From a virus, in the IMG/VR virus record IMGVR_UViG_3300029305_004519, positions 13,541 through 77,540 of that record: DNA of 64,000 nt; one strand, written 5' to 3'. This document shows, piece by piece, positions 1,973 through 62,424 of this stretch. The position numbers and the translations under genes are program-made. A model generated the notes under the pieces. The model ran no database searches. It was given only the letters and a program-made list of their open reading frames with translations, and was not told where the DNA came from. The first letter of the stretch is position 1, and every line of letters starts with the position of its first letter.

Positions 1973-3667
1973 TCAGAAATTATACCTACTTTCACCTGTA
2001 ATTGCATATTCTTCAATGAATATCTGCGGACTTACCCAGCCATTGTATTCATTTTTATTTGGCTTCCCAATGATATCCATTTCCACATAACCTTGAGTGT
2101 TTTGAAGTTTCTCACATAAGTCATCTGGAGCATTAAATAGCATTATTGACAAGCGGTTGGGAAGTGTTATCTTGAGAGTATTGTTTTTCTTTACATATAC
2201 CGTTACCATATCTGCCGTTACTTTTAAGCCATCAATAGCAACGAATGATTCTTCCACATCTTTGCCCCAAATGCCATCAAGTTCAGCTATCTCAAGGATT
2301 TGATTAGGATCTACATTTGTGTTGTGATAGATATAGTCTACATAGTGAACTGGTTCAGAGGCCATGTGTTGAAGGGCGCGGTCGGTCGATTCAAGAAAGA
2401 AGGGCACGTCCTCTGGAAGAAGACCTAAACCAAATGCGCCTTGGTGTCCAGCCACGTATTGAATAAGTCCAGTTTCTTCGCAGATATCTTTGAAGTTAGA
2501 TACATCCGCTTTATCACAACCTCGCGCCGAACCTTCATAACAGTCATATTTGCGCGCAACGAGAGTTGGAGTTGCGTCCACTTCGCGCTCGCGGCGGGTT
2601 AAAACTGCGCATGGACGCTGATATTTTCCCATAATCTTGTTTGCCACTAAACCAGCTACATTTGGTTCTACCTCACCTGGTTCCAAGAGGAATAGCAACA
2701 CTTTGTGCGCCATCATATTCTCTTCCTCAATTCTACTTTCAAGACGCGCCATTGCGTCGTCTTGAGCCTTCGTTTGGCGCGTCTTTACATTTTTACAAGT
2801 GCGCACTGCCTGTGTTACCAACTGTTCAGTTTCACCCTGCTTATGCCCACGCTTTGTAGAATATATATAATCAAAAGCCTTAAACTTCAAGAAGGATTTG
2901 AAAAGAAGCTCCTTTTCTTCTTCTTCGCCGCTACGCACCATAGCATTAACAAATGGCGCAATATACCAAGCGGCGCCATGTGGCGTAATCTTATCTCCAA
3001 GAGAGTAAGCATTACTTTCAGCTATTGTTGCGATAAATGGATTATGGATATTCTCTGCGCGGAAGCCTTTCATTATAAGATGCTTTGTTTCTATTGATTG
3101 AAGCGACATCATATCAGCTGTATTACCAAGCGCTACAAGGTCAAGATAATTTTGCGCATAATTAGTATGCATAAGTGAATCGAGATATCTGCAGAACTGC
3201 CATGTAATACCAACACCTGATAGTTGCTTGTTTGGATAAGTGCAAAGCTGGTTGTTAATTACTATTGCATTGGGCGAGACTATATCTGCTTCGTGGTGAT
3301 CTAAGACAATAATATCTACGCCTTTATCAATAAAGGCTAGGTGATATTCATAGTCGTTAGATGATGCATCTGGACACAAGATTAATGCATAATTGGCGGC
3401 CGCCCATTCAACATCAACATCACTAAGCCCATGTTGTTTACCGCTATGAATAAACCAGTCTAAGTTATTTTGAACCCAAGCCGGGAAGTGGTCATAGAGG
3501 TAGTTGATTAAGAGCGCGGACGAGGTAAATCCGTCACAATCTGAGTCTACGATAACTAGCGCCCGGGCGCCTTGAGAAATCGTTTTTATTAAGGTTTGAG
3601 CTGCCTTGCGTAATCGATCGGCGCCCAATAAATTAAAGTCATTAATATCTGCATCTGTTGTATTCAA
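1973..3667 (-). CDS. recJ: RecJ-like ssDNA exonuclease (DHH/DHHA1 phosphoesterase)
   Basis: Motifs IVDSDCDGFTSS (DHH motif I) and VLDHHEADI (DHH). 564 aa. Confidence 0.7.
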   Translation of the reverse strand: MNTTDADINDFNLLGADRLRKAAQTLIKTISQGARALVIVDSDCDGFTSSALLINYLYDHFPAWVQNNLDWFIHSGKQHGLSDVDVEWAAANYALILCPDASSNDYEYHLAFIDKGVDIIVLDHHEADIVSPNAIVINNQLCTYPNKQLSGVGITWQFCRYLDSLMHTNYAQNYLDLVALGNTADMMSLQSIETKHLIMKGFRAENIHNPFIATIAESNAYSLGDKITPHGAAWYIAPFVNAMVRSGEEEEKELLFKSFLKFKAFDYIYSTKRGHKQGETEQLVTQAVRTCKNVKTRQTKAQDDAMARLESRIEEENMMAHKVLLFLLEPGEVEPNVAGLVANKIMGKYQRPCAVLTRREREVDATPTLVARKYDCYEGSARGCDKADVSNFKDICEETGLIQYVAGHQGAFGLGLLPEDVPFFLESTDRALQHMASEPVHYVDYIYHNTNVDPNQILEIAELDGIWGKDVEESFVAIDGLKVTADMVTVYVKKNNTLKITLPNRLSIMLFNAPDDLCEKLQNTQGYVEMDIIGKPNKNEYNGWVSPQIFIEEYAITGESRYNF

Positions 3668-3755
3668 CCAATGGTGGATATCATAGTATGGGATACCTCT
3701 GTTAGTTAATACCTACTCTATTGCTGAATAGTGCGGATTTATATTTCCTAAAAGT

Positions 3756-4124
3756 TTATAATTCATTTCTTTTCACCTGCTTTCCCCATGTGGGTGTAGT
3801 CGCAAGAGCATCGTAGTAATACTGATTACCCATTCCGCTATCTCCAAATCCGTATTCTCGGAAAGAAGCTAATTTCATATAAGAAATATAAAATCCAAGA
3901 GTAAAAGGTTTACCTTGTTTTTCTTTTGCATATCTTCGCTCCTTCCAAAAATATTCAAAATATGGGATATCAAGCTCTTCTAATATCCACATAAAAGTTT
4001 CTGGTCTATCAGGATCAAAATGCTTATTGATACAATCTTTGCAAATTTTAAAATAGTTGTTATGTTTGGTAGTTAAAAAACTTTTTTCTTCTTTTGTTTG
4101 ATGACAATTTTTACATTCTATCAC
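3756..4124 (-). CDS. Hypothetical Zn-finger protein
   Basis: CKNCH...CKDC motifs. 122 aa. Confidence 0.4.
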   Translation of the reverse strand: MIECKNCHQTKEEKSFLTTKHNNYFKICKDCINKHFDPDRPETFMWILEELDIPYFEYFWKERRYAKEKQGKPFTLGFYISYMKLASFREYGFGDSGMGNQYYYDALATTPTWGKQVKRNEL

Positions 4125-12362: not shown

Positions 12363-13556
12363 TTAGCTATTCCCGCGAGTTTTATTCAGGCCAAAATCAT
12401 ATGTTTGATAGAGGTCGATATAAAACTTCTCCTTTTCATTTAATTCATTGATACTACATTTTTCTAATACTTCAAAAGTAAAGTTATCAATACCTTTTTC
12501 TCTTGTGAATGCATAGAGTTGACTTGTTACAGGGGTGTCGATACCCAAGCTACATTTAACATGCGTTACCCAACGCTCTTTGATATCTTTAGCTTGTCCG
12601 ATGTATGATATGCCAGAGTCAATGTGGGTAATTTTATATATTCCACTTGCGCCCACCGCACCTACGCGCGCCGCAAGGTCATTGACTTTATCTCTATAGA
12701 ATGTAGACCATATAAGCATTCGCAAAGGTCTTGCCTCACGCAAATTATATTCAATGCTTTGAAGATATGCAACATCCCGTTTATCAGCTTCATTAATTTG
12801 AAGGGTATAAAATGTCGCTTGATTTTTAATTTCTTCTTCACGGAGTTGTGCCTCCATTGCGGCGGCCTTAGTTGCACGAATTTTTTCTAGCTCTTCACGA
12901 ATTGAATCTAAATCAGCGCGCATTGCCGCCTCTTCTTCTTGCAGCTCTTTAGACATTGATTGTTGCTTATCATAAAAGAGTTTTACAAGAATATCTAAAT
13001 CTTGACGCTGTTCTTCGATTAAACCATTTTCTCTAGCATCTAATTCTAACATTCTAGTGAAATAAAGCTCATCTAGCTTTGCGATGTCATTATTAAACTC
13101 CTGTTCTCGCTTTTGATATTCATAATCAAGAGTATCACAATATTGCTCAAATGAGGTGCGAGCAGCTGCCTTTAAACTACCTGACATCTCATCTATTGAG
13201 CGATTTAAAGTGGCGATTTGCGCCTCCACTCCTGCTTTTTCAATTTGCTTATTTTGAATTTCATTTATTAACAATAATTTCTATTGAGTTAATTGATTTA
13301 ATTCGTCATAAGAATTTTTTGTTTTTTTACAGTTCTCTTCATACTTTTGAGAAATTTCATTGTTAGATTTTATCAATAAGTCATTTTGAGCTTCTAGGCT
13401 TTTGCGAGTTGCATGTAATGACTAATTAAGCTCTTCCAGTTTCTAATTTTCTTCTGCTACATAGTGATTTGCTTTTATAGTTGTGGCTTTAGCCCATATT
13501 CCGTAAGCAAGGCCGCCTACGCCAAGAAGAATTGATATTACACATATGATTATCAT
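12363..13556 (-). CDS. GIY-YIG endonuclease with N-terminal TM/coiled-coil region and three in-frame TAG codons
   Basis: C-terminal GIYKITHIDSGISYIGQAKDIKERW (GIY-YIG). Reading up from the ORF-track start, the frame stays open through TAGs: MIIICVISILLGVGGLAYGIWAKATTIKANHYVAEEN[TAG]KLEELN[TAG]SLHATRKS...LNQLTQ[TAG]KLLLINEIQNK. Total 398 codons. Confidence 0.5.
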
Positions 13557-14185: not shown

Positions 14186-15019
14186 TCATTTCATTAACTC
14201 CAATAATTCTTCTTCAGTAATAATCGGAATGCCAAGTTCCTTTGCTTTAAGATTCTTTGATGATGTACTATCAATATCATTATTGACGAGATAATCAGTT
14301 TTTGAAGAGACCGATGATGTTACTTTACCACCTGCGGCGGTCACTGCTGCAGAAAGTTCATCTCGGTTTTTCCAGATGTGGACTCGACCTGTAACGCAAA
14401 AGGTTTTACCCTCAAGCGCATTTCCAGAATTTTCCAGCGCGCTTTCATTTGTTTTAAAGGTAATAATCCCCTTTTCTACAAGGCTATCTGCTTCCGTATA
14501 GTCAAAGCTTAAAATCGCATCTGCTTTCTCTGGTCCAATACCATCAAGCGACTCAAAATCAAAGCCATTCGCAACAGCATTTCTAAATTCTTCATAAGTT
14601 TCAAAAGTATTTGCAAGTTTCTGCGCATAGGTCTTACCTATAAGCGGAATGCTAATTGCGCTTAAATACTGTGCAAGAGTAGTCTCGCGTGCTTTCCATA
14701 TAGAGTCAATGAGCTTAGTTACGCTTTTAGGTCCGAAACCAGGCTTACTAGCCCAGAGATCAGCTACTTCACCGAGTGCGCAAATATCGCTTATAGAAGA
14801 TACCCAGCCCCAGTCGATAAGTTTCTCTAAAGTTGCTTTAGACAAGCCTTTAATATCAAGACCTTTCTTTGATACAAAATGTTCTAATTTGTTAATCAAT
14901 TTTCCACTGCAATCAGGATTATTACAAAATAATTCTTGTGTGCCGCTATCGCTCGTTTTGATAATTGTATTTCCGCCGCAAATAGGACAAGTCTTTGGTA
15001 TTTCAATCCATTCAATCAT
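14186..15019 (-). CDS. ligA: NAD-dependent DNA ligase, C-terminal half (Zn finger, HhH, BRCT)
   Basis: CPICGG...CNNPDC zinc finger, HhH region, then BRCT-like GKTFCVTGRV...ELGIPIITEEELLELMK. Own RBS and ATG. Confidence 0.8.
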   Translation of the reverse strand: MIEWIEIPKTCPICGGNTIIKTSDSGTQELFCNNPDCSGKLINKLEHFVSKKGLDIKGLSKATLEKLIDWGWVSSISDICALGEVADLWASKPGFGPKSVTKLIDSIWKARETTLAQYLSAISIPLIGKTYAQKLANTFETYEEFRNAVANGFDFESLDGIGPEKADAILSFDYTEADSLVEKGIITFKTNESALENSGNALEGKTFCVTGRVHIWKNRDELSAAVTAAGGKVTSSVSSKTDYLVNNDIDSTSSKNLKAKELGIPIITEEELLELMK

Positions 15020-15983
15020 ATTTTCTTTCCTTTTTTACAATAAATTTACTTTTATTAATATCTAAATCTTCTAAGGTTAATTGTTCAAGATGAGTATAAG
15101 GAATTCTAATTAATATAATATTATTATCCATACACCATTTATTCTTAAAAAGATCTCGAGCATTAGTTTTTTGAAATTGCTCTTCTGCGACTTTTTTAGA
15201 TATGCCTCCAAATTGTCGAGGAGTAAAATGCTGTTCCCCATCATATTCAATTAAATATTTATTTTCAACAAAAAAATCATAATATAAATGATAATTCGTA
15301 TCTGGGTAAACACAAGTATCAAAAGTTTTCTATTTTTCAAAAGTAATATTATTTTCTTTTAAAAGTTTTTCAATACAGTATTCTCCTTTTGATTTTCCTA
15401 AGCACCCACAAGAAGAAGTGTGACCTCGTCTAAGATTTAACGTTGAAACTTGGATTTTATTATGATCAGGACATGAGCATTCACATAGCCACATAATTCT
15501 ACCATTTGGATCACGTTCTTCCATTTTTTCTATAACTGTTAATTTACCAAAATGGGATCCAACAAGATTTAATGCTCTTTGTTCTCCCAATTTCTTCATG
15601 CGCTCTTTGGTAATACAACCACAAGATTTAGTACCTCCATTTTCTCCTTTTTTCAGCTAATCAGTTGGTACTTTAGTAATATTTCCACAATCACACTAAC
15701 ATTCCCATATCATACATCTTTTAGGGGTTTTTTCTCCAGTTGGACGTAAAGCCACTAATCGTCCGAATCTTTGCCCTGTTAAATCTTCAAATTTAGGTTC
15801 ATGTTTTTTACATCCACAAGAAGTTACTCGCTTTGCATTTAATTCTCCAGAAGTTACTTCTTTTTGATTTCCACACTAACATTGACAAAGCCAAACAACA
15901 GCTCCCCCTTTTCGTTTGTCTGTTTTTTCAATTACTGTTAAATAACCAAACTACTCTCCAATTAAATTTTTACAAGCTGGCAT
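15012..15983 (-). CDS. Homing endonuclease (Zn-ribbon repeats plus Vsr-like/DUF559 nuclease domain) with five in-frame TAG codons, inserted inside ligA
   Basis: RBS AAGGAGAAAAG and ATG at 15983. Frame open for 324 codons through TAGs at GE*FGY, QC*CGN, EC*CDC, TD*LKK and FEK*KTF. C-terminus has YDFFVENKYLIEYDGEQHF...ARDLFKNKW...ILIRIPY (DUF559/Vsr-like). Ends with TGA overlapping the ligA-C ATG. Confidence 0.5.
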
Positions 15984-17103
15984 CGTTTATCTTTTCTCCT
16001 TCTGCTACCTGCGGAATAATTTGATTAGCGAGGTAGACTTTAATTTTTTGTCCTTTATAAGGTCTACCTAATATTAAATTTAAAGTAGATAAATTATGCA
16101 AATTTGCCCTTGAAATTATATTTGAACCCGTATCTACATCTTTGTAAACTGCAACTGGAGTCAAGACACCAGTTCTACCCATAGACCATTCAATGTCTAA
16201 GAGTTCAGTCTCATATTCCTCGTCATAGAATTTATAAGCAAGACCGCCGCGAAAATGATGTTCTGTTCTACCTGCTGCTTGGTATTCTTTAATATTATCC
16301 CACTTAAAGACAATACCATCAATAGGATAGTCATTTAAAGAAGATAACCCTTTTATAGATGCTTCAATATATTTTTCAGTCTCACCTCCGCAAAATGGAA
16401 CACTAATAAAGCTTAAACTTTGCAAATGAGTAAGTTTGGCGCTTAAAGTAGTCATATCAATATAATTAAATCCTTGAATAATATCCCAAGCTACAAAAGT
16501 CAATTCTCTTTTAGCGCACTCATTACTATCCAAAAGTCGAATACTACCAGCTGCAAAGTTACGCGCATTAGCATGCTTGCCTTTGAATTGCTCAAAAGTA
16601 TCGAGATCGCAGATAACTTCTCCATCTACTACAAGTGTATCTTTATAAGGAATAATTTGTGGAATAGAGGGGAGCACTCGCGCATTATGGGTAATATCTT
16701 CGCCCTCAACGCCGTCTCCTCTTGTCTCGGCGCGAATTAGTCTACCTTCTTCATAAGTCAAACGACAAGTTAAACCGTCAAGCTTAAGCATTGCAATCCA
16801 TTCTTTATCACCGATAAAAGATTTAATTTCTTCAATATCTTTTGTCTTATCAAGTGAAAGCATAGGTTGATATTCATGCTTTACTTTTTTAAGCTCAGAT
16901 ACTACTTCATATCTAATCTTCTTAGTAGGTGAATTTTCAAATTCGATACTTGGAAACTCTTGTTCAAGAGCTTTAAGTTCCAAATAAGCTTCATCCCATT
17001 CTTTATCTGTTATCTTTGGAGTCCCAGCATCATATTGGTCTTGATGATAATTAAGATATTCAATTAATCTTCGCATTTTTTGCGCTACATCAAATTTCTC
17101 CAT
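15970..17103 (-). CDS. ligA: NAD-dependent DNA ligase, N-terminal half (adenylation plus OB domains)
   Basis: KxDG motif MLKLDGLTCRL and ...IIPQVAEG (OB end). Stops just before the Zn-finger region, which is encoded by 14186-15019. Confidence 0.8.
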   Translation of the reverse strand: MEKFDVAQKMRRLIEYLNYHQDQYDAGTPKITDKEWDEAYLELKALEQEFPSIEFENSPTKKIRYEVVSELKKVKHEYQPMLSLDKTKDIEEIKSFIGDKEWIAMLKLDGLTCRLTYEEGRLIRAETRGDGVEGEDITHNARVLPSIPQIIPYKDTLVVDGEVICDLDTFEQFKGKHANARNFAAGSIRLLDSNECAKRELTFVAWDIIQGFNYIDMTTLSAKLTHLQSLSFISVPFCGGETEKYIEASIKGLSSLNDYPIDGIVFKWDNIKEYQAAGRTEHHFRGGLAYKFYDEEYETELLDIEWSMGRTGVLTPVAVYKDVDTGSNIISRANLHNLSTLNLILGRPYKGQKIKVYLANQIIPQVAEGEKINDASL

Positions 17104-19986: not shown

Positions 19987-21826
19987 CTCCAGCGCCCATT
20001 AATTGATCAAACAAAACATCTGCTTTCTTTGCTTCTTCAACTGTAACCTGATTCAACACTCTTAAACTTGGATCTACAAGAATTTCGGTCTCGTCTTCTG
20101 ACATCTCACCTAATCCTTTGAATCTATTAACCTGATACTTTTTTCCTCTATTTTTTTCTTGGAATTCAGCTAAATCTTTATCGTCTCTTAAATACAGATA
20201 AGTATCTTTACCCATTGTAATCTTATAGAGCGGCGCCACAAGCGCATATACATATCCTTCTTGAATAAGCTGTGGGCAGAAGTTCCAGATAAAAGTATAA
20301 AATAGGTTTCGAATATGGCTACCATCAGCGTCACCATCTGCGGCTATAATGATCTTGCCATAGCGCAACGAATCCTTGTCATAGGTAAGTTTCATTGTCT
20401 TAGGGTCTGCTTTAAGACCGAATGCCTCAATCATAGTCATAATCTCCGCATTTTTTTGGATCTTATCCAGCGTGTTCTTTTGACAATTAAGGATTTTACC
20501 TCGAACTGGCATCACAGCCTGAAATTCATTATTTCGGGCTGACTTAAGATTTCCAGAGGCAGAATCTCCCTCTGTCACATAGATCTCACAGTTGGCGCGA
20601 ATCTTTGAATAACAATCTGCTAATTTCGAATCAAACTTAAGTGCCTTTTCTTTCTTCTTTTTTTCGCCACGAGCCGCGTCGCGCGCCTTTTTGGCGGCCT
20701 CTCTTGCCTTCCTTGCATTAATTGCTTTATCTGCAATTACTTTAATTTCTTTTTCGTTATTATTTAACCAAATACCCAAATTCTCTGCAAGCGCCTGAGT
20801 AAAGGTTGTCATTCCTATTTTAGTAATATTACTCTTAACCTGCGCATCATATGACACATTAGGCGCAGTAATATTAAATACAATATACATTCCCTCTTGA
20901 ATATCATCACCTGACAGATTTTCATCAGTAGACTTCAGCCATTTTTTCTCCTTAAAGAACTTGTTAAATTCTCTTGTGAGTACTGTTTTAATCTGCGTGA
21001 TATGAGGTCCTTTCTCTGTAAGTCCAGTATTAACATAGGGGACAAGAGTAGAAGAATAATTACTAGTATAAGTGAGGATAAAGTCCATTTTCTCTTTTCC
21101 TTCACTAAAATTCATAGAAAATCTATTATTGATTATTTCTTTATCTTTTACTGCTTTATCTGCTAAATCATTTAATCCACGAGTTGAATGATAAGTTGTT
21201 TTCTTTCCATTATCATCGAGATTAATGGTAAGTCCAGGGCAAAGGCAAGTGATCGTCTCAAAGAGCGAATGGATCTTAGACACTTCTACTTCAGGGTGAG
21301 TAAAGAATTCTTCGCTTGGTTCCCACTCAACTATTGTACCTGTTGCTAACTTAGAAATACCCGTTTCTCTTTCAAAAAATACTCCTTCTTTAAAACTTAC
21401 TCTTTCCATTCTGCCATCTCTGTGTGTAACAACATCAAGCCAGTGAGATAAAAACGTAGTAATCTTTGAACCAATACCAAAACTACCAAGAGAAGTCCCT
21501 TCATAAGTTCCATCATCTCGATATTTACCAGAAGTATTTAGAACTGAGAATGCTGCTTCTAGAATAGTTTTTCCATCATCGCGCTTTTCATTTACCAAGA
21601 AGCCCTGACCGTAATCACGCACTCTTACTTTAGCTCCTCGAAGTTCTACATCGATCTGATTGCCATGACCCAATCTAAATTCATCGACACTATTCGAGAT
21701 AATTTCTACTAAGAGCTGCGTTGCATAGGTAGTATCTCCAGCATATACTCCTGGGCGTAACCTTGTGAATTCCAAGGGCGAGAGCGATTCTATACTATCT
21801 TTAGTATATAATTTACTATCTACCAT
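19928..21826 (-). CDS. Type IIA topoisomerase subunit B (GyrB/ParE-like ATPase plus TOPRIM)
   Basis: GHKL ATPase N-terminus; TOPRIM segment EGDSASGNLKSARN...MPVRGKILN. 632 aa. Confidence 0.85.
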   Translation of the reverse strand: MVDSKLYTKDSIESLSPLEFTRLRPGVYAGDTTYATQLLVEIISNSVDEFRLGHGNQIDVELRGAKVRVRDYGQGFLVNEKRDDGKTILEAAFSVLNTSGKYRDDGTYEGTSLGSFGIGSKITTFLSHWLDVVTHRDGRMERVSFKEGVFFERETGISKLATGTIVEWEPSEEFFTHPEVEVSKIHSLFETITCLCPGLTINLDDNGKKTTYHSTRGLNDLADKAVKDKEIINNRFSMNFSEGKEKMDFILTYTSNYSSTLVPYVNTGLTEKGPHITQIKTVLTREFNKFFKEKKWLKSTDENLSGDDIQEGMYIVFNITAPNVSYDAQVKSNITKIGMTTFTQALAENLGIWLNNNEKEIKVIADKAINARKAREAAKKARDAARGEKKKKEKALKFDSKLADCYSKIRANCEIYVTEGDSASGNLKSARNNEFQAVMPVRGKILNCQKNTLDKIQKNAEIMTMIEAFGLKADPKTMKLTYDKDSLRYGKIIIAADGDADGSHIRNLFYTFIWNFCPQLIQEGYVYALVAPLYKITMGKDTYLYLRDDKDLAEFQEKNRGKKYQVNRFKGLGEMSEDETEILVDPSLRVLNQVTVEEAKKADVLFDQLMGAGVAARKKFIQDHSKEAKYGV

Positions 21827-21872
21827 ATTTTCTCCTTTAATTTATTTTTATTCATTTTTATTTACTTATACT

Positions 21873-21908
21873 ATATTATAATATATTTTTTCAAAAATTT
21901 CAACAAAA
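21873..21908 (-). promoter_or_regulatory. Conserved phage promoter upstream of the topoisomerase B gene
   Basis: Minus strand reads TTGAAATTTTTGAAAAAATATATTATAATATAGTATA (TTGAAA-N17-TATAAT). Confidence 0.55.
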
Positions 21909-21919
21909 TAAACCACAGA

Positions 21920-22423
21920 TTAACTCTGTGGTTTATTATTTTCTTTATACCATTTATATCCTTCAATTTGAATTCTAAACTTCGTATACAACTCTGTTAA
22001 ACTATCGGCACATAAAAAGTTATCCTGAAAGCAGTAAAAATCTGCTCGTTGACGCAGGTTATTTTCGATTAAAAAATCTCTAAAAGCATCTGCGATTTGG
22101 TACAAGCGATCGATCTCTGCCCGAGCAGCCTCTTCACTTTTATCTAGTTCAAACCTTTTAGTGTAAAAAGCCGTATCTACAATCATGCAATACTTTTTAC
22201 TTTTCCGGTCAAAATAAACATAGGCATCATCCCACGAAAGAAAAGAAGGTGTTTTACTAGGGTCGACATTATATCCCCAAATGAATTTATTATCAAGCAT
22301 ATTAAATTCATCGTCTTCCCAATCAGGATACTCACGGCGGCAGCGCGCCTTGTCCTTAGCTAAATTCCGTGATATTGTTTTTAAATGTTTACTTATATAT
22401 TTAGTTAATTTTTGTTCTTGCAT
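21920..22423 (-). CDS. Hypothetical protein
   Basis: 167-aa ORF; RBS present. Confidence 0.4.
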   Translation of the reverse strand: MQEQKLTKYISKHLKTISRNLAKDKARCRREYPDWEDDEFNMLDNKFIWGYNVDPSKTPSFLSWDDAYVYFDRKSKKYCMIVDTAFYTKRFELDKSEEAARAEIDRLYQIADAFRDFLIENNLRQRADFYCFQDNFLCADSLTELYTKFRIQIEGYKWYKENNKPQS

Positions 22424-22467
22424 ATTTTCTCCTTTTTTGAGTAAAAGCTCCTCCTTAAATAAGAGGA

Positions 22468-22543
22468 GCTTTAAGTATGGCTGGGAGTGTGGGATTCGAA
22501 CCCACGCATAACCGGGTTAGAGCCGGAGGCCTTAGCCGCTTGG
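22468..22543 (-). tRNA. Amber suppressor tRNA, anticodon CUA, tRNA-Gln-like body (tRNA-Sup(CUA), predicted Gln)
   Basis: Hand-folded canonical 76-nt cloverleaf: AGGGAGT/ACTCCCA acceptor (A1·A72 mismatch, G2-C71, G3-C70), G73, encoded CCA, D-arm GCCA/AGGC, anticodon loop C-U-C-U-A-A-C (U33, C34 U35 A36), T-arm GTGGG-TTCGAAT-CCCAC. Shares TCGCCAAGCGG...CCCAGCCA features with the tRNA-Gln(UUG) at 42331-42408. Confidence 0.8.
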
Positions 22544-22602
22544 CGAACTCCCTATTGATTACATATAAATTATAATCAAAATTTTTGAAAAAATCAATTA
22601 TT

Positions 22603-23121
22603 TTAATCAATAGGGAACCAGTTTTCACCATTCTTAGGTTCTTTAATTTCCCAGAACTCAATTAGATCTCTGTATTTACTCCAGTTTTGAGTTGCAATGG
22701 CGTCAGCTAATTCATTACCAAGCTCTCCTTTGTGACCACTACATTTGATGATCTCGGCATTAAAAAATGGACGAGAAATATAGCCCCAAATTGCTTTCAT
22801 TAAGTCTACATTTTCTACTTCTTGCTTTTTACTGTTGCGCCAACCATTAGACGCCCAAGTTCGCATCCAAGAGTTACAACTATTAACTACATAGGCGCTA
22901 TCAGAGTAAATGACGAATTGATCATACATATGAGACTCTACATATCCAAGAGCACAAAGCATTGCCTTAAGTTCCATGCGGTTATTGGTTACATAATCTT
23001 CAGTATCATGCTCTATAAACAAGATCTCAGTATCATTTTCGTTCATTATAACCATACCCCAGCCGCCTTTTCCTGGGTTGCCGCGAGAAGATCCATCAGT
23101 ATATATATAATATTTACTCAT
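22603..23121 (-). CDS. rnhA: Ribonuclease HI
   Basis: YTDGSS...GWG, NNRMEL, SDSAYVVN, GHKGELGNELADAIA motifs. Confidence 0.8.
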   Translation of the reverse strand: MSKYYIYTDGSSRGNPGKGGWGMVIMNENDTEILFIEHDTEDYVTNNRMELKAMLCALGYVESHMYDQFVIYSDSAYVVNSCNSWMRTWASNGWRNSKKQEVENVDLMKAIWGYISRPFFNAEIIKCSGHKGELGNELADAIATQNWSKYRDLIEFWEIKEPKNGENWFPID

Positions 23122-23737
23122 TGTTTTTCTCCTCTAACCATTTATCCAAATCAAATTCAGTTGTTTCTCTTTTATATACTGATTTAAGCCATACAGGACA
23201 AAGGTCAACATCAAGCAACCATTCTTTTTTTACTCGCAGTTCATCGTAAGCAAGATTAACGAAAACGCAAGAAATAAATTCTTTAATATGAGGATGCATG
23301 GCAAGTGGTTTAGAACATTTATTAAGCCACCATTTCCATTCTTTTTGATAGGTGAAATCCTTCCCCATATAGGCGCGCCCGGCGCCGAGATAGTCACAAA
23401 GCATTTCAACAGCATCTTTATAAGGCATTGGGACAGGATTCCCACCATTGTCAAAATTGTCAACCCAATATTCATAATGGTGAGTGTTTCTACCCTTATG
23501 ATGCATCCATGCCTTAGAGACGCCTTTATCTTCTTTACAAGCATCAATAGGGGATCTATTACCTTGATAATATCTTACAGACTCCCAAAACTCAATCGGA
23601 GAGAACTTAGACCAATCATGCATAAAACCACGCCAAGGAATTCCTGCCTTGCAGCAATAATAAAATACCCACCATTTGTGTTTACAAATTTTACCAAAGT
23701 GGCGAAAAGTGTTTTTAATAGTAATTCGAGGTGTCAT
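23114..23737 (-). CDS. Hypothetical protein (His/Trp-rich)
   Basis: 207-aa ORF; no confident motif. Confidence 0.35.
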   Translation of the reverse strand: MTPRITIKNTFRHFGKICKHKWWVFYYCCKAGIPWRGFMHDWSKFSPIEFWESVRYYQGNRSPIDACKEDKGVSKAWMHHKGRNTHHYEYWVDNFDNGGNPVPMPYKDAVEMLCDYLGAGRAYMGKDFTYQKEWKWWLNKCSKPLAMHPHIKEFISCVFVNLAYDELRVKKEWLLDVDLCPVWLKSVYKRETTEFDLDKWLEEKNNE

Positions 23738-24009
23738 TTATAATCCTTTCTACTTTATATCCTTTATCTTCAATAGCCATAAAATCAATATCGTCATATA
23801 TTAATAATACAGTATGATTTGGGAAAGCTTCTTCTAAAGAGCGCTTTATATTTTTCATATCTTCAAAATCATATCCGCCATCTTTTGAAAGGCGCGCAAC
23901 AAGCACTGAATTACGCTCAAGGGTAAGTGTGTTAAGTTGCACAGGGAGAATGTTTGGCGCTTCATGATATTTGAGAATTTTCTGTTTGACAGGCGTTTCA
24001 GTGTAATAT

Positions 24010-24450
24010 TCAATCATTATTGCGCTCCTTACATCTATTTCTTTGTGCATTAAAAGAATCAAAAGTAGTAATCTTTAGATGATAAGTTTCTTTCAAATAG
24101 TTGATTTTATTCTTCCACCATTTAACAGTCAATTCAAGATCTTCAATTTGCTGCTCGATTTTCTTTACCCAAAAAGCGGCATCATCATAAGTTCTTGTCT
24201 TAGACATATTTCCCCAAAACTCTTTAAGAACTTTCACTTGAGCGTCATAATATTTCTTTTTAGCTCTTGCATATTTAATATTGGCTTTGATTTCTGCTAA
24301 CTCCCAGCCAAAATAATTAGAACGACAACTTTCGTCTTCAGGACGAATTTCTACCGTTGCGCTAAATTGCCCCATATCAGTACCGATAATGACATTATAC
24401 TGGCGTCCATCGACGCTAATGCCATTCTTAATAAGTGTCGGTCGTTTCAT
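24010..24450 (-). CDS. Hypothetical coiled-coil protein
   Basis: 146-aa ORF. Confidence 0.35.
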   Translation of the reverse strand: MKRPTLIKNGISVDGRQYNVIIGTDMGQFSATVEIRPEDESCRSNYFGWELAEIKANIKYARAKKKYYDAQVKVLKEFWGNMSKTRTYDDAAFWVKKIEQQIEDLELTVKWWKNKINYLKETYHLKITTFDSFNAQRNRCKERNND

Positions 24451-24560
24451 TTCTAAAAACCTCCATATTTATAATTTCTTTAATATAGTATTTAATTGCA
24501 TTATAATGATGCATAATCCAATCGGTCAGCACCAAACCAATGCATCCCACAATTCCTATA

Positions 24561-25127
24561 TCAATCATCATTTTCTAACAGCTCCTCACATTTCTTCATT
24601 TCTGCTTTAACATCAGCAATTGCGTCATCAAGTAAAACAGGATATCCATCATGAGAGTCTACTCCAATATGATACATCCAAGGATCTCCCTTATAGAAGT
24701 TAGATGCTTGATGAGTATGCCCAAACAAATTAATCACGACCTGCCAAATTTCTTTTTCATCCAGATTATGAGTAATAATAGGATAGTGAGAGAGATAGAA
24801 ATTTAGTTTCTTATATTTTAGTCTTGCACAAAGCTGAACATCCCAGCCCATATCTCGATAAGCCTGTTCGCGCTTAGCAGTATCGTGATTTCCAAGACAT
24901 ACATGGATTTTGCCTTTGAGTTGTTTAAGAAGCGCCAAACCTCCCTCAATGTCGCCTAATACCAAATCTCCAAGAATCCATACATCATCTTCATCAGACA
25001 CTACAGAATTGAACTTTTCAATCTGCTTCATATTCATTTCATTTACATCTGCATACCCTCTGGCGCCCCAGATAAACTCACGGTCATGCCCCAGATGCAG
25101 GTCGCTAGTGATCCAAATCTTGCTCAT
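24561..25127 (-). CDS. Calcineurin-like metallophosphoesterase
   Basis: SDLHLGH, GDLV, GNHD and GHTH motifs. Confidence 0.7.
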   Translation of the reverse strand: MSKIWITSDLHLGHDREFIWGARGYADVNEMNMKQIEKFNSVVSDEDDVWILGDLVLGDIEGGLALLKQLKGKIHVCLGNHDTAKREQAYRDMGWDVQLCARLKYKKLNFYLSHYPIITHNLDEKEIWQVVINLFGHTHQASNFYKGDPWMYHIGVDSHDGYPVLLDDAIADVKAEMKKCEELLENDD

Positions 25128-25627
25128 TTTTTCTCCTCCATATTTCCATTTTCATCAACAATATAAATTTTATTATAGGTAAAAATACCTTCATGCCACT
25201 TAGGTTCTTTAAGTGCACGATACATTTTTGCAATTGCTTCAGGCGGAACATAGGCACGTCCGGCGCGCTGTGCATTGCGCTCTTGCGCAACCTCAAGAGG
25301 AACCTTAAAATAAATTACCTCAATCTCATTAGGAATAATATCCAATGCTTTAAGCAACTTCAAGCGAGCGCCATGGTTAAGATGAGTTGCGTCTGCATAA
25401 ACAGTTTCTCCAGACTTTAAAAGAGATTCAATGCTTGCTACATAAGTTTCCCAAACCTCATCTTCCTTTGAGAAATAATTATCATTCTCTTGAAGTAAAG
25501 CAAAACGAATTGCATCTCTTGAGACAATAAATTCATCTATCTTTTTATTTTGGTTAAGCCAAGTGCTTTTCCCTGAACCCGGAATACCAACCATCAATAT
25601 CAGCTTACCATTTATCTTATATTCCAT
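25124..25627 (-). CDS. P-loop polynucleotide kinase-like protein
   Basis: LMVGIPGSGKST Walker A; AAA_33/T4 PNK-kinase-like. Translationally coupled to the phosphoesterase. Confidence 0.55.
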   Translation of the reverse strand: MEYKINGKLILMVGIPGSGKSTWLNQNKKIDEFIVSRDAIRFALLQENDNYFSKEDEVWETYVASIESLLKSGETVYADATHLNHGARLKLLKALDIIPNEIEVIYFKVPLEVAQERNAQRAGRAYVPPEAIAKMYRALKEPKWHEGIFTYNKIYIVDENGNMEEKK

Positions 25628-25977
25628 TTAATTATTACCTCTTTTACCATGAAATATACACCCAAATTTGTATATGGTTATCGACAACTTTTTGTTGTGT
25701 TTTAACATCAAAACCAAGTGTATTTATACCCAATTCCATAATGGCATTTTCAAAATCAGCCACTGGAATATTATAATCATCTAAAACAGTTTTGCTCCAA
25801 AAATCAGAGATTGAAGAAGATCCCATTGCAATAGCCCTATGAATCATGGGTTCTAAACAAGTAACCCATTCACTATTGGCAAAATTTTTAGCTTCGTTTA
25901 ACTGTGTTTCACGAATTTTATTAGTCTGTTTTCTTGCTTCTATTGCTGTAATCATTTCTTTTTTCTCCTTTTTATTT

Positions 25978-26022
25978 CTTTATAATTTATTATATCATAT
26001 TTTTTTAATAAAATCAAAAAAG
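25978..26022 (-). promoter_or_regulatory. Conserved phage promoter (middle/late class)
   Basis: Plus-strand ctttataatttattatatcatatttttttaataaaatcaa. Confidence 0.6.
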
Positions 26023-26037
26023 AAAAAGGAGAGTAAA

Positions 26038-26346
26038 TTACTCTCCTTTAATGTAGGTATCTACTTTTTCATTGTCTTGAATTAATCCTTCAAGAGTGTC
26101 TAAAGCATCATCAACTAATGTCTTGAAAGTTTCAAAAGACATAAATTTACTGATGATTGGGAATTTAGTTAAAAATGCATCATATACTTGACGCAATTTT
26201 AATTCGCCAGTTCCAGTTCCTAATAACTTTTCTGCAGTTGCAACTGCATAAAGTAGCCAATTTTTGAGATTTTTACGCTCTCTGTAGGCAAGCAATGCGA
26301 CTCCTCCAATAAGAAGTACTAATGCTACGATCCATAAGTATTCCAT
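26038..26346 (-). CDS. Small membrane protein (N-terminal TM helix)
   Basis: MEYLWIVALVLLIGGVALLAY... Confidence 0.4.
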   Translation of the reverse strand: MEYLWIVALVLLIGGVALLAYRERKNLKNWLLYAVATAEKLLGTGTGELKLRQVYDAFLTKFPIISKFMSFETFKTLVDDALDTLEGLIQDNEKVDTYIKGE

Positions 26347-26364
26347 GGTTCATCCTCCTTTTTA

Positions 26365-27144
26365 TTACATAATATACCAAGTTGAAACCGTATTCTTTAT
26401 TAATTTAATAGTTGCAGCGGTTCCTTTTGTATATGTCACAGTTAAGTTTGTTAATTCTTCTCCATCTTGTAATGCAGCGGTAAATGAGGTGCCATTTAAA
26501 GTTATTGCACCACCCTCGGTAATAGCTAAGGCAGGATTGCTATTATTAGTAGTTTTCGTTTCAATTACTCCATCTTTAATAATAGTAACGGTAGTGAGAT
26601 TAGAGGAAGCTGTTGGAGGAGTATATGCTTCTCCTTCCATAGTAATGATACATAACTCTTTATTTTCATTTGGAAAAGCATCAAATGTAAATGTAAATAT
26701 TGAAGGATCTCCGGTTGGAGCCATAGAAAGATTTAAAGTTGTTTGTAATTTTGCTTCAGGAATAGTAATAGTTGCACTATGATCTACGCCTTCATCATCT
26801 CTAATTAAGGTTGTTGCATTTACCGTATAATAAGCTGCAAATGAAGTAGTTTTAATTTTAAAAATTGTCTATGATGAGCCAGACGTTACTTCTGCTCCAG
26901 TTAGAGCATGGAATGACTCCATTGTAAGCAATGCGTCTTCTACTGTAAAAGTAAGCGTTTTTTCACCTTCCCAAGCAATTAAACGAGAATTACCTTTACC
27001 TCCTTGAGCATATACTGTTGAGCTTGTTGATTCAATTGTACTCATTTTTGCAGTATCGATAACAAAAGAGCTGGGACCTTCTCCAGAACCAACTTTTTTA
27101 GTAAAAGTTAAATCACAAACTTCACGAATACCAAATCTATTCAT
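26365..27144 (-). CDS. Beta-rich structural-like protein with one in-frame TAG
   Basis: ORF-track fragments 26869-27144 and 26365-26724 are in the same frame and joined through a TAG at 26869-26871 (...EVTSGSS[TAG]TIFKIKTTSF...MAPTGDPSIF...). 260 codons. Confidence 0.5.
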
Positions 27145-27243
27145 AAAAATATTTCCTTTTCTTTCAAAATAAAAATATAAGCGGCAAGCTTCTATATTAT
27201 ATTGAAAATTAAGGAGATATAATTAATTACTTTTGACCAATTT

Positions 27244-28434
27244 TTAAGAATGGTATTTCAAGAGGAACTCATTACTTACAGCTTTAAAGCTCAATTCGCC
27301 ATCTTCTGAACGGAATACTAAGCCTTCACGCATACCCCCATCAATCTTTGACGGCGCGGATGCGGCAAGAGTCAACACCTCTTCACAAGTAGCAGGAAGT
27401 TCTAGGCGCCCAAGCACGGGTACAGTAGGCAATCCATAGGTATCACAAATGATCTTCATATCAATAGGATTCAGGCGTTCAACCCTACCATCCTTATAAC
27501 CATAAATAACATTAAAGATAGCCAAATCACGATTCTTCATTCCATAATCGCGCTTTTGCACAGAGGCACCGTAGATTTCGCCTTGAATGGTAAGAAATTC
27601 CAATTCCCTATCACAATTGTCCATCCATTCCATCCAACGAGCCATAACATTTTCCATATCATACTTTTCCGCCATTTCAACATAAATGTTGGTGTCATAA
27701 AAACACTTCTTATCTGGCTTATCAAATACGACATTTCGAGAGCAAACATAGAACTCTCTCTTTTTGCCTTTGCCGCGCAAGGTAAAGGTTGAAGAACTAC
27801 CATCAATTTTTTCAGTCAAGATCCAAGTTTTACGCTCTGAAGTATTGAAAAGATAAGGTAGATTTTGAACGCGCTCTTCATCAGTCTTTTTTACCCAAGC
27901 CGGCCAGCCATTTTTCTTATCTTTCTTTTTACCAAAGAAGAAGAACATTAGGCGGCGACCCCATTCGCGCTTCATTAACCAACGTGCCCACTTCTTTTTA
28001 AAGATGTCAGGTCTGCGCTGAGCCATTCTCTTATACTTGTCAGGTCCAGATCCTTTACGCTCATTATCAGCAGCTTCAGAATAAGTTACACCAAGCAACT
28101 CGGTGCAATCAACATTAGTTTCATTAGGAATTTTTACATCAAAGGCATTGATAGGAAGCGCCAAGCCTTGACTAATAACTCCAAACTTAGAAAGTTTCAT
28201 ACTCTTAACCTTAAACTTTTTAGGTGCCAAAAATGCACACCATTCCTTGTCTTCGGGTAGTTTTGAGTCAATCTCAAAATATACGCAAAGGTCTCCTGCT
28301 TTAAACTCACCGATCTTAGCGATACAAGTCCATCCGCCAATCCCAACAAGCTCTATATTATCAGCACCTTCAATAGGTCTTACCCAGTCTATACGAGTAG
28401 TATAAGCCAGTGCTCTTTTATCATTTATCAGCAT
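27244..28434 (-). CDS. ATP-dependent RNA ligase (Rnl family nucleotidyltransferase)
   Basis: Covalent nucleotidyltransferase motif I, TEKIDGSS (KxDG). 396 aa. Confidence 0.55.
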   Translation of the reverse strand: MLINDKRALAYTTRIDWVRPIEGADNIELVGIGGWTCIAKIGEFKAGDLCVYFEIDSKLPEDKEWCAFLAPKKFKVKSMKLSKFGVISQGLALPINAFDVKIPNETNVDCTELLGVTYSEAADNERKGSGPDKYKRMAQRRPDIFKKKWARWLMKREWGRRLMFFFFGKKKDKKNGWPAWVKKTDEERVQNLPYLFNTSERKTWILTEKIDGSSSTFTLRGKGKKREFYVCSRNVVFDKPDKKCFYDTNIYVEMAEKYDMENVMARWMEWMDNCDRELEFLTIQGEIYGASVQKRDYGMKNRDLAIFNVIYGYKDGRVERLNPIDMKIICDTYGLPTVPVLGRLELPATCEEVLTLAASAPSKIDGGMREGLVFRSEDGELSFKAVSNEFLLKYHS

Positions 28435-28559
28435 CTTTTTTCTCCTTTTTTATCTTATCTTTTTTCTTTAATTTATCATTGCAAATAGTCTTTGCAATAT
28501 CGAAAGTAAATAATCCTACAAAAATTATGATTCCCATAATTGCTAATGCTATATCCATA

Positions 28560-29480
28560 TTATACCTCCAAACATTCTCTCAGCAATCCTGCGCGTAGCG
28601 GATTGCGCAGTTTGCGCAAGGCCTTTTCTTCAATCTGTCTAATGCGCTCTTTAGATAGCTTATATTCATTTCCAATTTCTTCCAAAGTCTGAGCTTTATG
28701 ATTATTCAAACCATAGCGACGTGTCAGCACATCTGCTTCTCTATTGTCAAGAGTTGATAATACTTGTTGAATACGCTTAGAGACTTCTTCTTTGAAAATG
28801 TCTTCAATTGGAGATTCATTATTTTCATCTGCTACTAAATCGCCAATAGTTGCATCATCTTCATCATTGATACTTTGATCAATAGAGATTGGGTCTTTAA
28901 CAATAGCTCGCAACTCTTTAATTTTCTTTTCTTCAAGTCCCATATGATTTGCAAGCTCTTGTGTGGTAGGTTCTCTATTCAGTACTTGACAGAGTTCATT
29001 AGTGGCACGACTCAGTTTACTAAGTTGCTCAATAACATGCATAGGTACTCGAATGGCTCGCGATTGCTCAACGACAACTTTAGAGATACTTTGTTTAATC
29101 CACCATGTAGCGTAGGTAGAAAATTTATAACCTAAAGTATAATCCCACTTATCTACGGCGCGCATTAATCCAATATTTCCCTCTTGAATTAAATCAAGAA
29201 ATGGCATATTGGTACGATGTAAATATTTTTTTGCAATACTTACTACCAAACGCAAATTTGCTTCAATCAGTTTATTCCTTGCTTCAATACTTCCATTTGC
29301 AATTTGGGCGCCTAAAGCTTGCTCTTCTTCGTAGGAGAGCAAAGGAATTTTACTAATTGAGTTCATATATGCTTTTGTTGCGTCTGGTAAAAAACCCATA
29401 TTATCAAAATCTACATCAATACTATTTTCTTCCTCAAGAATCAAATCTTCCGCTTCTAAAATCATTACATTATTTTCCAT
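28560..29480 (-). CDS. Sigma-70 family RNA polymerase sigma factor (regions 1.2, 2, 3 and 4 all present)
   Basis: ...[14 protein letters not shown]...[19 protein letters not shown]...[10 protein letters not shown] (region 2) ... [28 protein letters not shown] (region 4.2 HTH). Confidence 0.8.
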
Positions 29481-30076
29481 TATGCTTTACTCTTTTCTTT
29501 AATATATTTTTATTTAGTATAATATTATAACATAATTTTTTTAGAAAATCAATTATCTGCTCCTTGAAACTCTTGCATACTTATAGGGGGGATAATGGCG
29601 CCAAAACGCGACCATGAGCCAAAGTCAACAAATGTGGCATTAGATGCCATAAGATATCGCCAATACCCGCCATGATTACTGGTTACATCAGCAAGTAATT
29701 TACACGCTTCTTGAATCGAATTAGCATCGCCTATAAACAATTCATTTTCAAGCACCTCAATAGAGTCGGTTAAAAATACCTTATAGCGACCATGGGCGCC
29801 GAACAACTCAGCATCTTTAAATCTTTCACACACTTCTTGATCGGTTGCTTTACATGTATAAATACAATGATTACAGGTTTTCATTTTTATTTTCTCCCTC
29901 TTGATTATTAATTTGAGCTTTTAATTTTTCACATTCTTCTACTATTGATTCCATTTCATTTAAAATATTTACAAGTGATGTAAATTCATTCGCAAGATTT
30001 ACAAAACCAATATTAGAATAATAATTAGCTTTTTCAATGGATTTATTTTTTAATTCAAGTATTTTTTCTTTCACAG

Positions 30077-39594: not shown

Positions 39595-40009
39595 CGTTGT
39601 CCATCTCCTTTGTTAACTCAATATAAGTGCCTTTAACCCCTTGGTTTTTAACTTGCGCAATACCAAATTTTTCCATTTTCGCCAACAATGAAGTCCAAAC
39701 AGGGCGCGATAGGTTTGTTTTTTGAATCATTTTTACAATTGAAAGATTACCAGATAGCCCAATTGTTTCTCTAATTGCTATAAAAGCATTTTTTTCATTA
39801 ACAGTTAATGATTTGTAAAAATCTTCTACTAAAACAAGCTGATCGGCGCCAATCACTGCTTCTAAAAAATTCATAAGGCGCCCAATATCACCATCTAATC
39901 TAAACTCACGAATATCTTCCTCGTAGTCATGAGCTATTGAGAGTAATTTTTCGTAACTAATCATTTCTTTACACATCCTTTTATTTATTCTATTAAAATT
40001 ATAAGACAT
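39578..40009 (-). CDS. Hypothetical protein
   Basis: 143-aa ORF. Confidence 0.35.
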   Translation of the reverse strand: MSYNFNRINKRMCKEMISYEKLLSIAHDYEEDIREFRLDGDIGRLMNFLEAVIGADQLVLVEDFYKSLTVNEKNAFIAIRETIGLSGNLSIVKMIQKTNLSRPVWTSLLAKMEKFGIAQVKNQGVKGTYIELTKEMDNDDLPT

Positions 40010-44287: not shown

Positions 44288-44363
44288 TGGCGACTCTGAG
44301 GCATTCCGACAGCCCGACCTTCGCAGTGACAGTGCGATGCTCTACCCCCTGAGCTACAGAGCC
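44288..44363 (-). tRNA. tRNA-Asp(GUC)
   Basis: Acceptor GGCTCTG/CAGAGTC, G73, D-arm GCTC-AGGGGGTA-GAGC, anticodon stem TCGCA/TGCGA with loop CUGUCAC. T-arm is irregular. Confidence 0.5.
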
Positions 44364-57615: not shown

Positions 57616-58413
57616 ATGACTGTTGAAGAACTTTCTGATAAATATAATATGTCAGTAAGTAGTATTAAGAATTCTTTTCCACGAACTCAAGCTTCTATTT
57701 TGAAAAAACATGGAGTAAAAATTGTGAAATAGGGTAGAGGAGATAATGCTTAGTATTATGAGGAATGGGTCGATGACCAGCGCGCCTTAACAATGTATGA
57801 AGAAACAAAAGGAACGGTAATGATTAGTAGTGAACAATTATCAATGGTGAATTGGGACTTCCATGTTTTTTTAGGTATTATTACAACTCCAATGTTAGTT
57901 TTTAGAGGAAGTTATGAGGATTTTTTAAGATATACTTCTATCCCTGTTAATAATAATAATATATGGGAATTAAAAATGGCGCTTTAGCATCTTGTTGCGC
58001 GCGATTATATTAGCTATTAGATAGATAAAACTAATGAGAATTATTTTGTAGCCGCCCTTTGGTATTAGACGGAAAAAGATATGGAAATTGGAATAGAAAT
58101 GGTGCGCACTTGTAAATAGTTAGCGGAGTCTTATAATAAAAGAAGTTGGGTGCCATTATTAAAAACTTGGTTGGGTGTTTAGATGATGTCTAAGCATTAG
58201 CCTTATACAGTTGCGCAATTAGCGGAGATTACTGGGCTAAGCGATTATGCAATAAGAGAAAGTACAAAGATACTAGGAGATTGCGCAGTGTTTTAGACAT
58301 CGCGCGCATATAAATCTTATTAGAAATGTATTGGTACAAATGTAGAGTTTATTCATGAGGCTTTTTATGATTTGCCAGAAGATGGAGAAAAGAGGAAAGT
58401 GCCGAAGAAATAA
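57616..58413 (+). CDS. HTH-containing protein encoded with 11 in-frame TAG codons
   Basis: RBS AAAGAGAGG, ATG at 57616. 266 codons open through 11 TAGs to a TAA at 58411. Contains HTH-like segments SVSSIKNSFPRTQASILKKHG and PYTVAQLAEITGLSDYAIRESTKIL. ORF-track 57793-57987 is an internal fragment. Confidence 0.5.
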
Positions 58414-62368: not shown

Positions 62369-62424
62369 TTTTTTCCTTCCTTTTAGTTTTATGTATGGGG
62401 CGGTTTAAACCGCCCCTTGTGCGC

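Follow-up and report, generated by a model that had tools for sequence, protein, structure and literature searches.

A tail-tube-family gene with an in-frame TAG, probably read as glutamine, in a phage with a CUA-anticodon tRNA

When two neighboring open reading frames (ORFs) of a phage are separated by nothing but a TAG, are they two genes, a broken gene, or a single gene in which the TAG is read as an amino acid? This question is raised by a 64,000-nucleotide stretch of a viral genome (IMG/VR record IMGVR_UViG_3300029305_004519, positions 13,541 to 77,540; hereafter the window), in which two such ORFs lie on the minus strand. A previous inspection of the letters by themselves (hereafter the original prediction) had proposed that they form one beta-rich virion protein and that recoding of TAG thus extends to morphogenesis genes. 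Our analysis suggests, with a probability of about 0.88, that the locus is an intact tail-tube gene of the YomU/SPbeta-SPR type, in which UAG is read as glutamine (Gln) by a phage-encoded tRNA(CUA), that is, in genetic code 15.

Translation of positions 26300-27300 gave a single frame on the minus strand from 27144 to 26365, with an ATG at 27144, 259 sense codons and a TAA at 26367-26365 that is directly followed by a second TAA. The sole stop inside this frame is a TAG at 26871-26869, codon 92, and the translation reads MNRFG...TSGSS, the TAG, TIFKIK...STWYIM and the two terminal stops. The ORF list holds the same region as two pieces in a common frame, 26869-27144 (91 amino acids, aa) and 26365-26724 (119 aa), the latter beginning at an internal ATG at 26724; the 48 codons from the TAG to this ATG are open and are conserved in homologs. 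A single frame with a single TAG is thus what the original prediction had described. Its joined product of 260 aa is indeed continuous, although 259 aa long (260 codons counting the stop), and it is rich in Thr (17.8%), Ser (8.1%) and Gly (7.3%) as had been stated. Runs of at least 259 codons free of TAA and TGA were found in none of 20 shuffled windows. Past the TAG, 167 codons continue without a TAA, a TGA or a frameshift, and all residues that are invariant in the family are kept.

The interruption could also be an assembly or sequencing error, or the locus could hold two genes, the second starting at ATG 26724. These are general possibilities, and standard-code gene callers did split the gene: public gene calls in identical contigs give the same 91-aa and 119-aa ORFs. 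These pieces are listed there as hypothetical proteins. However, two other contigs of the Joint Genome Institute (samples 3300029705 and 3300032167) are 100% identical to the window over 5080 and 2680 bases, TAG included, so that three contigs agree base for base. The recurrence of the TAG in independent contigs makes a random assembly or read error, which had been named as a way in which the original prediction might fail, unlikely. Furthermore, the stretch of 48 codons that separates the TAG from the ATG encodes conserved protein (FAAYY...AKLQT.LNLS), and no sequence resembling a ribosome-binding site (RBS) was seen upstream of ATG 26724. We regard an error or a pair of genes as barely credible.

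What does the joined gene encode? The protein matches PHROG 2729 (‘virion structural protein’) with E=1.7e-42, its N half aligning to profile positions 2-87 and its C half to positions 170-246. The two halves thus belong to the same family in collinear order, and do not have the unrelated homologies that would have spoken against joining them. Among 5.8 billion proteins searched, 3394 were homologous to the joined protein (best E 3e-72), and thousands of uninterrupted homologs run across the TAG site. The best 120 of these are mostly 250-280 aa long and uninterrupted, are 45-57% identical to the query over 99-100% of its length, and all carry PF27173, the YomU_Tube family, of which a precomputed match exists also on the 91-aa N fragment. 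Residues 5-92 gave a profile match to the SPR-type tail tube chains 9jgh and 8k98. Phages in GenBank with uninterrupted homologs are Clostridium phage D-1873, Brevibacillus phage Sundance, Lactococcus 949-like phages, Enterococcus EF1-like phages and phAss-1, the taxonomy line of which reads ‘Caudoviricetes code 15 clade’. VPS11_N, the sole match in a general Pfam scan with a library that does not contain PF27173, is at chance level (E=0.085) and was rejected.

A structural model of the homolog P0004, which is 57% identical to the window protein, matches the solved SPR tail tube (Foldseek E=1.5e-8), with matches that include complexes with the DSR2 defence protein. The fold of the model is the Hcp-like beta-sandwich of tail tubes, including a long assembly hairpin. 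Both PF27173 and the match of this model to solved siphophage tail tubes bear out the suggestion that the gene encodes a virion-type protein. In the model, a helix (73-80) precedes strands 83-87 and 90-94, and the column of the TAG is G90, in the hairpin turn. Four further core strands of the tube domain follow the TAG site before a C-terminal beta domain begins near residue 165; P0004 residues ~185-265 form strands with a confidence score (predicted local distance difference test, pLDDT) of around 90. The homolog alignment shows the pattern FAAYY..A.TL.R...G.DH.A.I.IP.AKLQT.LNLSMAPTGDPS.FTFTFDA in codons 93-160. The gene would thus provide, in one product that presumably polymerises as a tube protein does, a tube domain (~residues 1-160) followed by a C-terminal domain that is variable and rich in beta strands and is probably an outward-facing decoration domain. 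According to the model, the 91-aa product would be half a tube domain.

The window protein shares with the YomU/SPR-type tail tubes (9jgh/9jgi, 8xkn, 8k98) a common sequence family, the long hairpin and the combination of a tube with an extra C-terminal domain, the likeness in fold being predicted from the model of the homolog. It differs from them in that its gene sits apart from the portal/capsid/tape-measure block and carries an in-frame TAG. Compared with the PHROG 2729 profile and the canonical tubes of related phages, it also lacks an insertion of ~80 residues (profile positions 93-170 are unmatched).

Many siphophage tail proteins are made both with and without an immunoglobulin-like domain at the C terminus. 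The TAG could in principle serve such a purpose, with programmed readthrough giving a short and a long functional tail protein in the manner of SPP1 gp17.1 and gp17.1*. The window protein does have a C-terminal extra domain, and the SPP1 gp17.1* structure 6yeg is among the fold matches of the P0004 model. As in SPP1, a long product with a C-terminal decoration domain would arise by non-standard decoding. In the window, however, the signal would be a reassigned stop with a suppressor tRNA and not a frameshift, and the TAG, at residue 92, falls inside the tube domain when about half of its strands have been made, whereas the domain boundary is near 160. Because of this position the 91-aa product is not a complete tube subunit, which contradicts an SPP1-like arrangement, and no functional short form is expected. 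Two programmed forms are thus very improbable.

The reading of TAG as a sense codon is not confined to this gene. At least five further genes of the window use TAG in this way, and the PHROG matches of a RecJ-like gene (codon 18), a Sak4-like gene (codons 10 and 13) and a gene for an HNH endonuclease (5 TAGs) extend across their TAGs. At codon 18 of the RecJ-like gene, 5 relatives share the TAG of the window; two others, of 95-98% identity, have CAG instead, and six more distant relatives have CAA. For the Sak4-like gene, codon 10 in relatives is CAA in seven and TAG in one, and codon 13 is CAA or CAG in four, TAG in three and AAA in one. In a gene with 10 in-frame TAGs, Gln is the majority residue at 6/10 TAG positions among the 20 closest uninterrupted homologs, against a background of 4%. 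This gene has the densest TAGs of the window (10 in 265 codons, 3.8%) and lies within a plus-strand block at 56.2-59.6 kb; one of its homologs is annotated as an Lrp-family DNA-binding regulator. Across the window, TAG accounts for at most 39 of 564 Gln-type codons, next to 344 CAA and 181 CAG. With TAG read through, all 80 gene models end in TAA (60) or TGA (20), a count that is partly a product of how the models were built.

In the tube gene itself, the column of the TAG is variable among homologs (G/K/S/A/R/L, mostly G/K/S). The nearest IMG/VR tube is 49% identical, and the only identical copies are those in the 100% identical contigs. Since there is no close tube relative in which TAG and CAG could be compared at codon 92, we relied on the other genes, and the variability of the column means that the amino acid is deduced from these genes and from the features of the tRNA.

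Is there a tRNA that could decode the TAG? The window has 25 tRNA genes, one with the anticodon CUA. This tRNA(CUA) gene lies 3.8 kb downstream of the tube gene on the same strand and is followed by a plain hairpin. In the tRNA, A1/A72 are unpaired, G2-C71 and G3-C70 follow, position 73 is G, and the D-arm resembles that of the window's tRNA-Gln(UUG). An unpaired 1/72, G2-C71, G3-C70 and G73 are Gln-type features, as known from the identity elements of tRNA-Gln and from the supE amber suppressor. Genes for CUA tRNAs are present at the syntenic site, after an RNase H gene, at four related loci: L182 (14902-14976), L264 (11026-11100), L266 (10892-10983) and L099 (14571-14669). These syntenic tRNA(CUA) genes differ greatly from each other; two of them (92 and 99 nucleotides) have a long extra arm, and the one in L099 is called ‘???’ with a 4-base anticodon by ARAGORN, its loop reading CUCUAAA. 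A theta/HDV-like ribozyme (HDV, hepatitis delta virus) next to a suppressor tRNA is an idea taken from PMC10879173, and no Rfam match at the gathering score was found for one beside the window's tRNA(CUA).

ARAGORN labels the window's tRNA ‘tRNA-Pyl’, which might suggest that the TAG encodes a residue other than Gln, such as pyrrolysine. This label is given to any CUA tRNA and stems from the anticodon alone. Moreover, relatives have CAA or CAG almost exclusively at the conserved TAG positions, the tRNA has a standard cloverleaf, an ordinary tRNA score and a Gln-type acceptor, and none of the scanned window proteins is the product of a pyl gene. A residue other than Gln therefore has very little in its favor. 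We infer from the sequence that codon 92, a UAG that falls in a hairpin turn on the surface, midway along the tube domain, would be decoded by the tRNA(CUA) at 22478-22553, that Gln would be inserted there, giving ...VTSGSS-Q-TIFK... across the TAG (AEVTSGSSQTIFK), and that the full-length 259-aa protein would be made.

Recoding of this kind is established in phages. In phAss-1 and its relatives, TAG is read as Gln via a phage suppressor tRNA (PMC10607447), and in crAss-like code-15 phages Gln at TAG has been validated by metaproteomics (PMC9523058). The window resembles the code-15 phages in having split conserved genes, a Gln-like tRNA(CUA) and TAGs that align with Gln in homologs. The genome size of its relatives (123-138 kb) and the tube family link the window phage to a wider group with phAss-1, Enterococcus phage EF1 and the Lactococcus 949-like phages. 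Its kinship with phAss-1 itself is only distant: the tubes are ~36-40% identical, and a megablast of window positions 20000-40000 against GenBank phages gave no match. The window has one CUA tRNA compared with three in phAss-1. Relative to the code-15 phages, phAss-1 included, TAG is sparse in the window, and occurs also in replication and recombination genes besides the virion-type gene. TAG-as-Gln recoding is thus known, including in large Firmicutes-type siphophages related to phAss-1, and the window adds another lineage.

The position of the gene was less expected. In the order of transcription, a gene for a protein like the Major Vault Protein (MVP), an HNH endonuclease, a sigma-70-type factor and an RNA ligase come before the tube gene, and a small membrane protein and a terminator-like hairpin come after it; onward lie a 103-aa ORF, a polynucleotide kinase, a phosphoesterase, RNase H, the tRNA(CUA) and topoisomerase II subunits (Table 1). 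These neighbors are non-morphogenesis genes, and the tube gene does not lie in a tail block, a position that we take as typical of the family rather than as a strict requirement. The hairpin probably ends the transcription unit of the tube gene. The membrane protein has a weak match (E=0.002) to the holin PHROG 6918. The RNA ligase, polynucleotide kinase and metallophosphoesterase constitute an RNA-repair-type set around the tube gene, at 24561-28434 (-); a kinase accompanies the RNA ligase in 49/78 related loci and a phosphoesterase in 35/78.

The element upstream of the tube gene occurs once in the window, and in a set of 266 loci it is found only 5' of tube genes in this unusual position, hereafter ectopic tubes. 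It is a candidate for a private promoter or leader. We considered the motif as a general promoter class and rejected this, since it occurs only 5' of ectopic tubes; in 27145-27243, the search for sigma-70-like promoters gave none above the chance level.

Is this gene then the tube gene of the phage, or a second one? The same arrangement (sigma factor, a 374-478-aa gene, tube, kinase, RNase H, gyrase-like) is present in four contigs (loci L177/L182, L264, L265 and L266), which were found through the tube protein; the 374-478-aa gene is an RNA ligase where it is Pfam-annotated. A tube gene near the RNA ligase was found in none of 78 IMG/VR RNA-ligase loci. The contig IMGVR_UViG_3300029705_000054 (135 kb) is related to the window, with a RecJ-like protein that is 95% identical and syntenic blocks of 68-93% nucleotide identity, and it has both copies: an ectopic tube, P0041, at ~44 kb (L182), and a canonical tube of 307 aa at ~120 kb (L234), 8 kb downstream of the portal gene. 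The canonical position is found in L004 and L019 as well as in L234, and in the cultured relatives phiL47 and Sundance the tube gene follows the genes for head and connector and precedes that for the tape measure. The ectopic tubes form a clade of their own, to which the canonical tubes of the same phage group do not belong. They are 50-60% identical to each other and keep the assembly hairpin VYAQGGKGNSRLxAWEGEKT almost unchanged. Judging from these relatives, the window gene is probably a second, ectopic tube paralog. It would be part of a cluster of sigma factor, RNA ligase, tube, kinase, phosphoesterase, RNase H, tRNA(CUA) and topoisomerase, under its own conserved upstream element, with the canonical tube in a portal/capsid module outside the window. 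We also considered a second tube gene in Brevibacillus phage Sundance, where two places match, but both lie within gp030. A search of the literature on YomU and on phages with two tube genes gave nothing relevant, and the phAss-1 paper (PMC10607447) makes no mention of a tail tube, a sigma factor, an RNA ligase or vault genes. An ectopic tube in a cluster of sigma-factor and RNA-repair genes is the only feature that we could not place in the literature found.

Table 1 Features of the tube locus and of other TAG-related genes in the window.
Feature	Position	Strand	Basis
RecJ-like exonuclease, TAG at 3715-3713 (codon 18)	1973..3766	-	PHROG 2484 match from residue 5
tRNA, anticodon CUA (amber suppressor)	22478..22553	-	ARAGORN; Rfam tRNA, 48 bits
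Polynucleotide kinase (25124-25627) and phosphoesterase (24561-25127), downstream	24561..25627	-	PHROG scan
Terminator-like hairpin with T-run, end of membrane-protein gene	26025..26049	-	Terminator-like
102-aa membrane protein, start 19 nucleotides past the tube stop, own GGAGG RBS	26038..26346	-	PHROG 36029, E=1e-19
Tail-tube-family coding sequence, complete	26365..27144	-	Frame, PHROG 2729, homologs, PF27173
Variable all-beta C-terminal domain, codons ~165-259, conserved end ...STWYIM	26368..26652	-	Alignment (WYII end), P0004 model
Codons 93-160, second half of tube domain	26665..26868	-	Profile 170-246; invariant columns S101...D155
In-frame TAG, codon 92, sense, most likely Gln	26869..26871	-	Translation, alignment, homolog model, identical contigs
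N-terminal 91 codons, first half of tube domain, near-invariant hairpin VYAQGGKGNSRLIAWEGEKT	26872..27144	-	PHROG 2729 profile 2-87, E=1.2e-25
Intergenic region, RBS AAAGGA, conserved element TCTCCTTAATTTTCA (27217-27203) and AGCTTGCCGCTTA (27190-27178)	27145..27243	-	Compared by eye, window and 4 relatives
RNA ligase, upstream neighbor	27244..28434	-	PHROG 968, E=2.5e-65; precedes tube also in L264, L266
Gene with 10 in-frame TAGs	57616..58413	+	Uninterrupted homologs up to 92% identical

Several observations weigh against an intact tube paralog with Gln at codon 92. The ectopic ortholog P0041 has no TAG, and the close relative L099 has the kinase gene immediately after the RNA ligase gene, without an ectopic tube; in DNA, a dispensable gene that had recently acquired a nonsense mutation would look no different. 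Codon 92 by itself does not indicate Gln, its column being variable. Four small ORFs, all on the minus strand (949-1185, 50182-50337, 60206-60391 and 62389-62895), have a TAG 1-17 codons before a TAA or TGA, and TAG may still be a stop in some contexts, its meaning depending on context or timing. The fold was modelled on the homolog P0004 (pLDDT 82.7) and not on the window protein. Finally, the window ends before the structural module, so that a canonical tube of this genome was not seen.

The first of these points could be taken further: the TAG may terminate translation, and the ectopic paralog would then be a recently inactivated pseudogene. The gene is indeed accessory, as its absence from L099 indicates, and the TAG form is present only in the identical contigs, which have adjacent prefixes (Ga0224413/Ga0224414) and may come from one project. 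However, this genome reads TAG as sense in the RecJ-like, Sak4-like, HNH and other genes and encodes a suppressor tRNA, so a ribosome that reaches the TAG of the tube gene would be suppressed too. The intact 167 codons past the TAG, with their invariant residues kept, speak against decay as well. We consider a nonsense allele quite improbable.

How far does the recoding extend? The original prediction had extended it to morphogenesis genes, which is supported with two qualifications. A virion-type gene carries the TAG, a tRNA(CUA) is encoded and TAG corresponds to CAG or CAA in other genes of relatives, but the gene lies outside the morphogenesis module and is probably a second tube copy. Nor is recoding in the window specific to morphogenesis, since replication, recombination and homing-endonuclease genes carry TAG too. 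In the structural module of L234, the portal gene has 8 in-frame TAGs and a 586-aa gene has 15, and a 350-aa gene of capsid size and the canonical tube gene have 0. Taking L019 and L234 together, TAGs are dense in portal, connector-size and 559-586-aa genes (up to 15 per gene), and there are none in the 350-aa gene and the canonical tube, a pattern that points to avoidance of TAG in the virion genes with the highest expression.

The uneven spread of TAGs bears on a refinement of our reading rather than an alternative to it, a model that has been proposed for recoded phages. The TAG could act as a gate for timing or dosage, with the full-length tube paralog depending on accumulated suppressor tRNA, which competes with host release factor 1; no full-length protein would appear before the tRNA(CUA) is expressed, and a truncated by-product of 91 aa would accompany it. 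Recoded stops were reportedly enriched in late and lytic genes in the work of Borges et al. in 2022. In keeping with a gate, the morphogenesis genes of the relative are TAG-dense, as seen above for its portal and 586-aa genes, whereas in-frame TAGs are rare in the early-type cluster of L182; the tRNA(CUA) gene lies in the same cluster as the tube gene; and the interrupted genes of phAss-1 are mostly virion genes (PMC10607447). However, the tube gene has a single TAG in 259 codons, in a variable loop, and P0041 has none, so the TAG is not conserved. The RecJ-like and Sak4-like genes also carry TAG, which means that suppression is already active when such genes are expressed, and the small share of TAG among the Gln-type codons fits drift between CAG and TAG. 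We therefore find a gate unlikely.

Why would a phage keep a second tube gene? One speculative answer, to which we give only a slim chance, is that the ectopic tube is not a building block of the tail but a factor, expressed together with the sigma-factor and RNA-repair genes, that uses its intact tube-assembly surface either as a decoy or blocker of tube-sensing immunity such as DSR2 or as a modulator of tail assembly. DSR2 binds the SPR tube, which belongs to the same family as the window protein, and tail tubes of this family trigger DSR2 defence. Several properties fit a gene engaged in an arms race: fast divergence, in that the ectopic tubes share 50-60% identity in phages with RecJ-like proteins that are 95% identical; presence in some and absence from other close relatives, together with a private upstream element; and a location adjoining RNA ligase and kinase genes. 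Such RNA ligase and kinase genes elsewhere repair RNA that has been damaged by host nucleases.

Other features of the window are recorded here in their own right. The 844-aa product of an ORF at 30716-33250 (-) matches a vault repeat as well as the shoulder domain of the Major Vault Protein (PF11978, E=1.2e-23). Loci L177, L264, L265 and L266 also have this MVP-like gene upstream of the sigma factor, and L099 has a version with 88% identity. A 2023 preprint (10.1101/2023.11.10.566534) describes MVP homologs of phages. NAD-dependent DNA ligase (NAD, nicotinamide adenine dinucleotide) ORFs at 14186-17103 (-) comprise 15970-17103 (PHROG 3869) and 14186-15019 (HhH and BRCT), and between them lies the HNH homing-endonuclease ORF with five in-frame TAGs (15012-15983). 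At 12363-13556 (-), a 397-aa protein, of an architecture that is unusual among homing endonucleases, combines an N-terminal membrane helix, a long coiled coil with three TAGs and a C-terminal GIY-YIG homing-endonuclease domain. A tRNA array of 24 tRNAs at 40-51 kb contains a full-length ROOL RNA at 40474-41088 (-) (RF03087, 175 bits, model 1-574), and an extra tRNA at 44291-44363 (-) scores 44.9 bits with Rfam and has no ARAGORN call.

For the annotation of such phages, our findings mean that standard-code callers split the tube, RecJ-like, Sak4-like and homing-endonuclease genes and others in the window, and that code 15 restores them. Less expected is that this group of phages appears to keep two tail-tube genes, one canonical and one in an early-type cluster. 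The fast-evolving extra copy is a reasonable target for work on its presence in virions and on tube-sensing defences.

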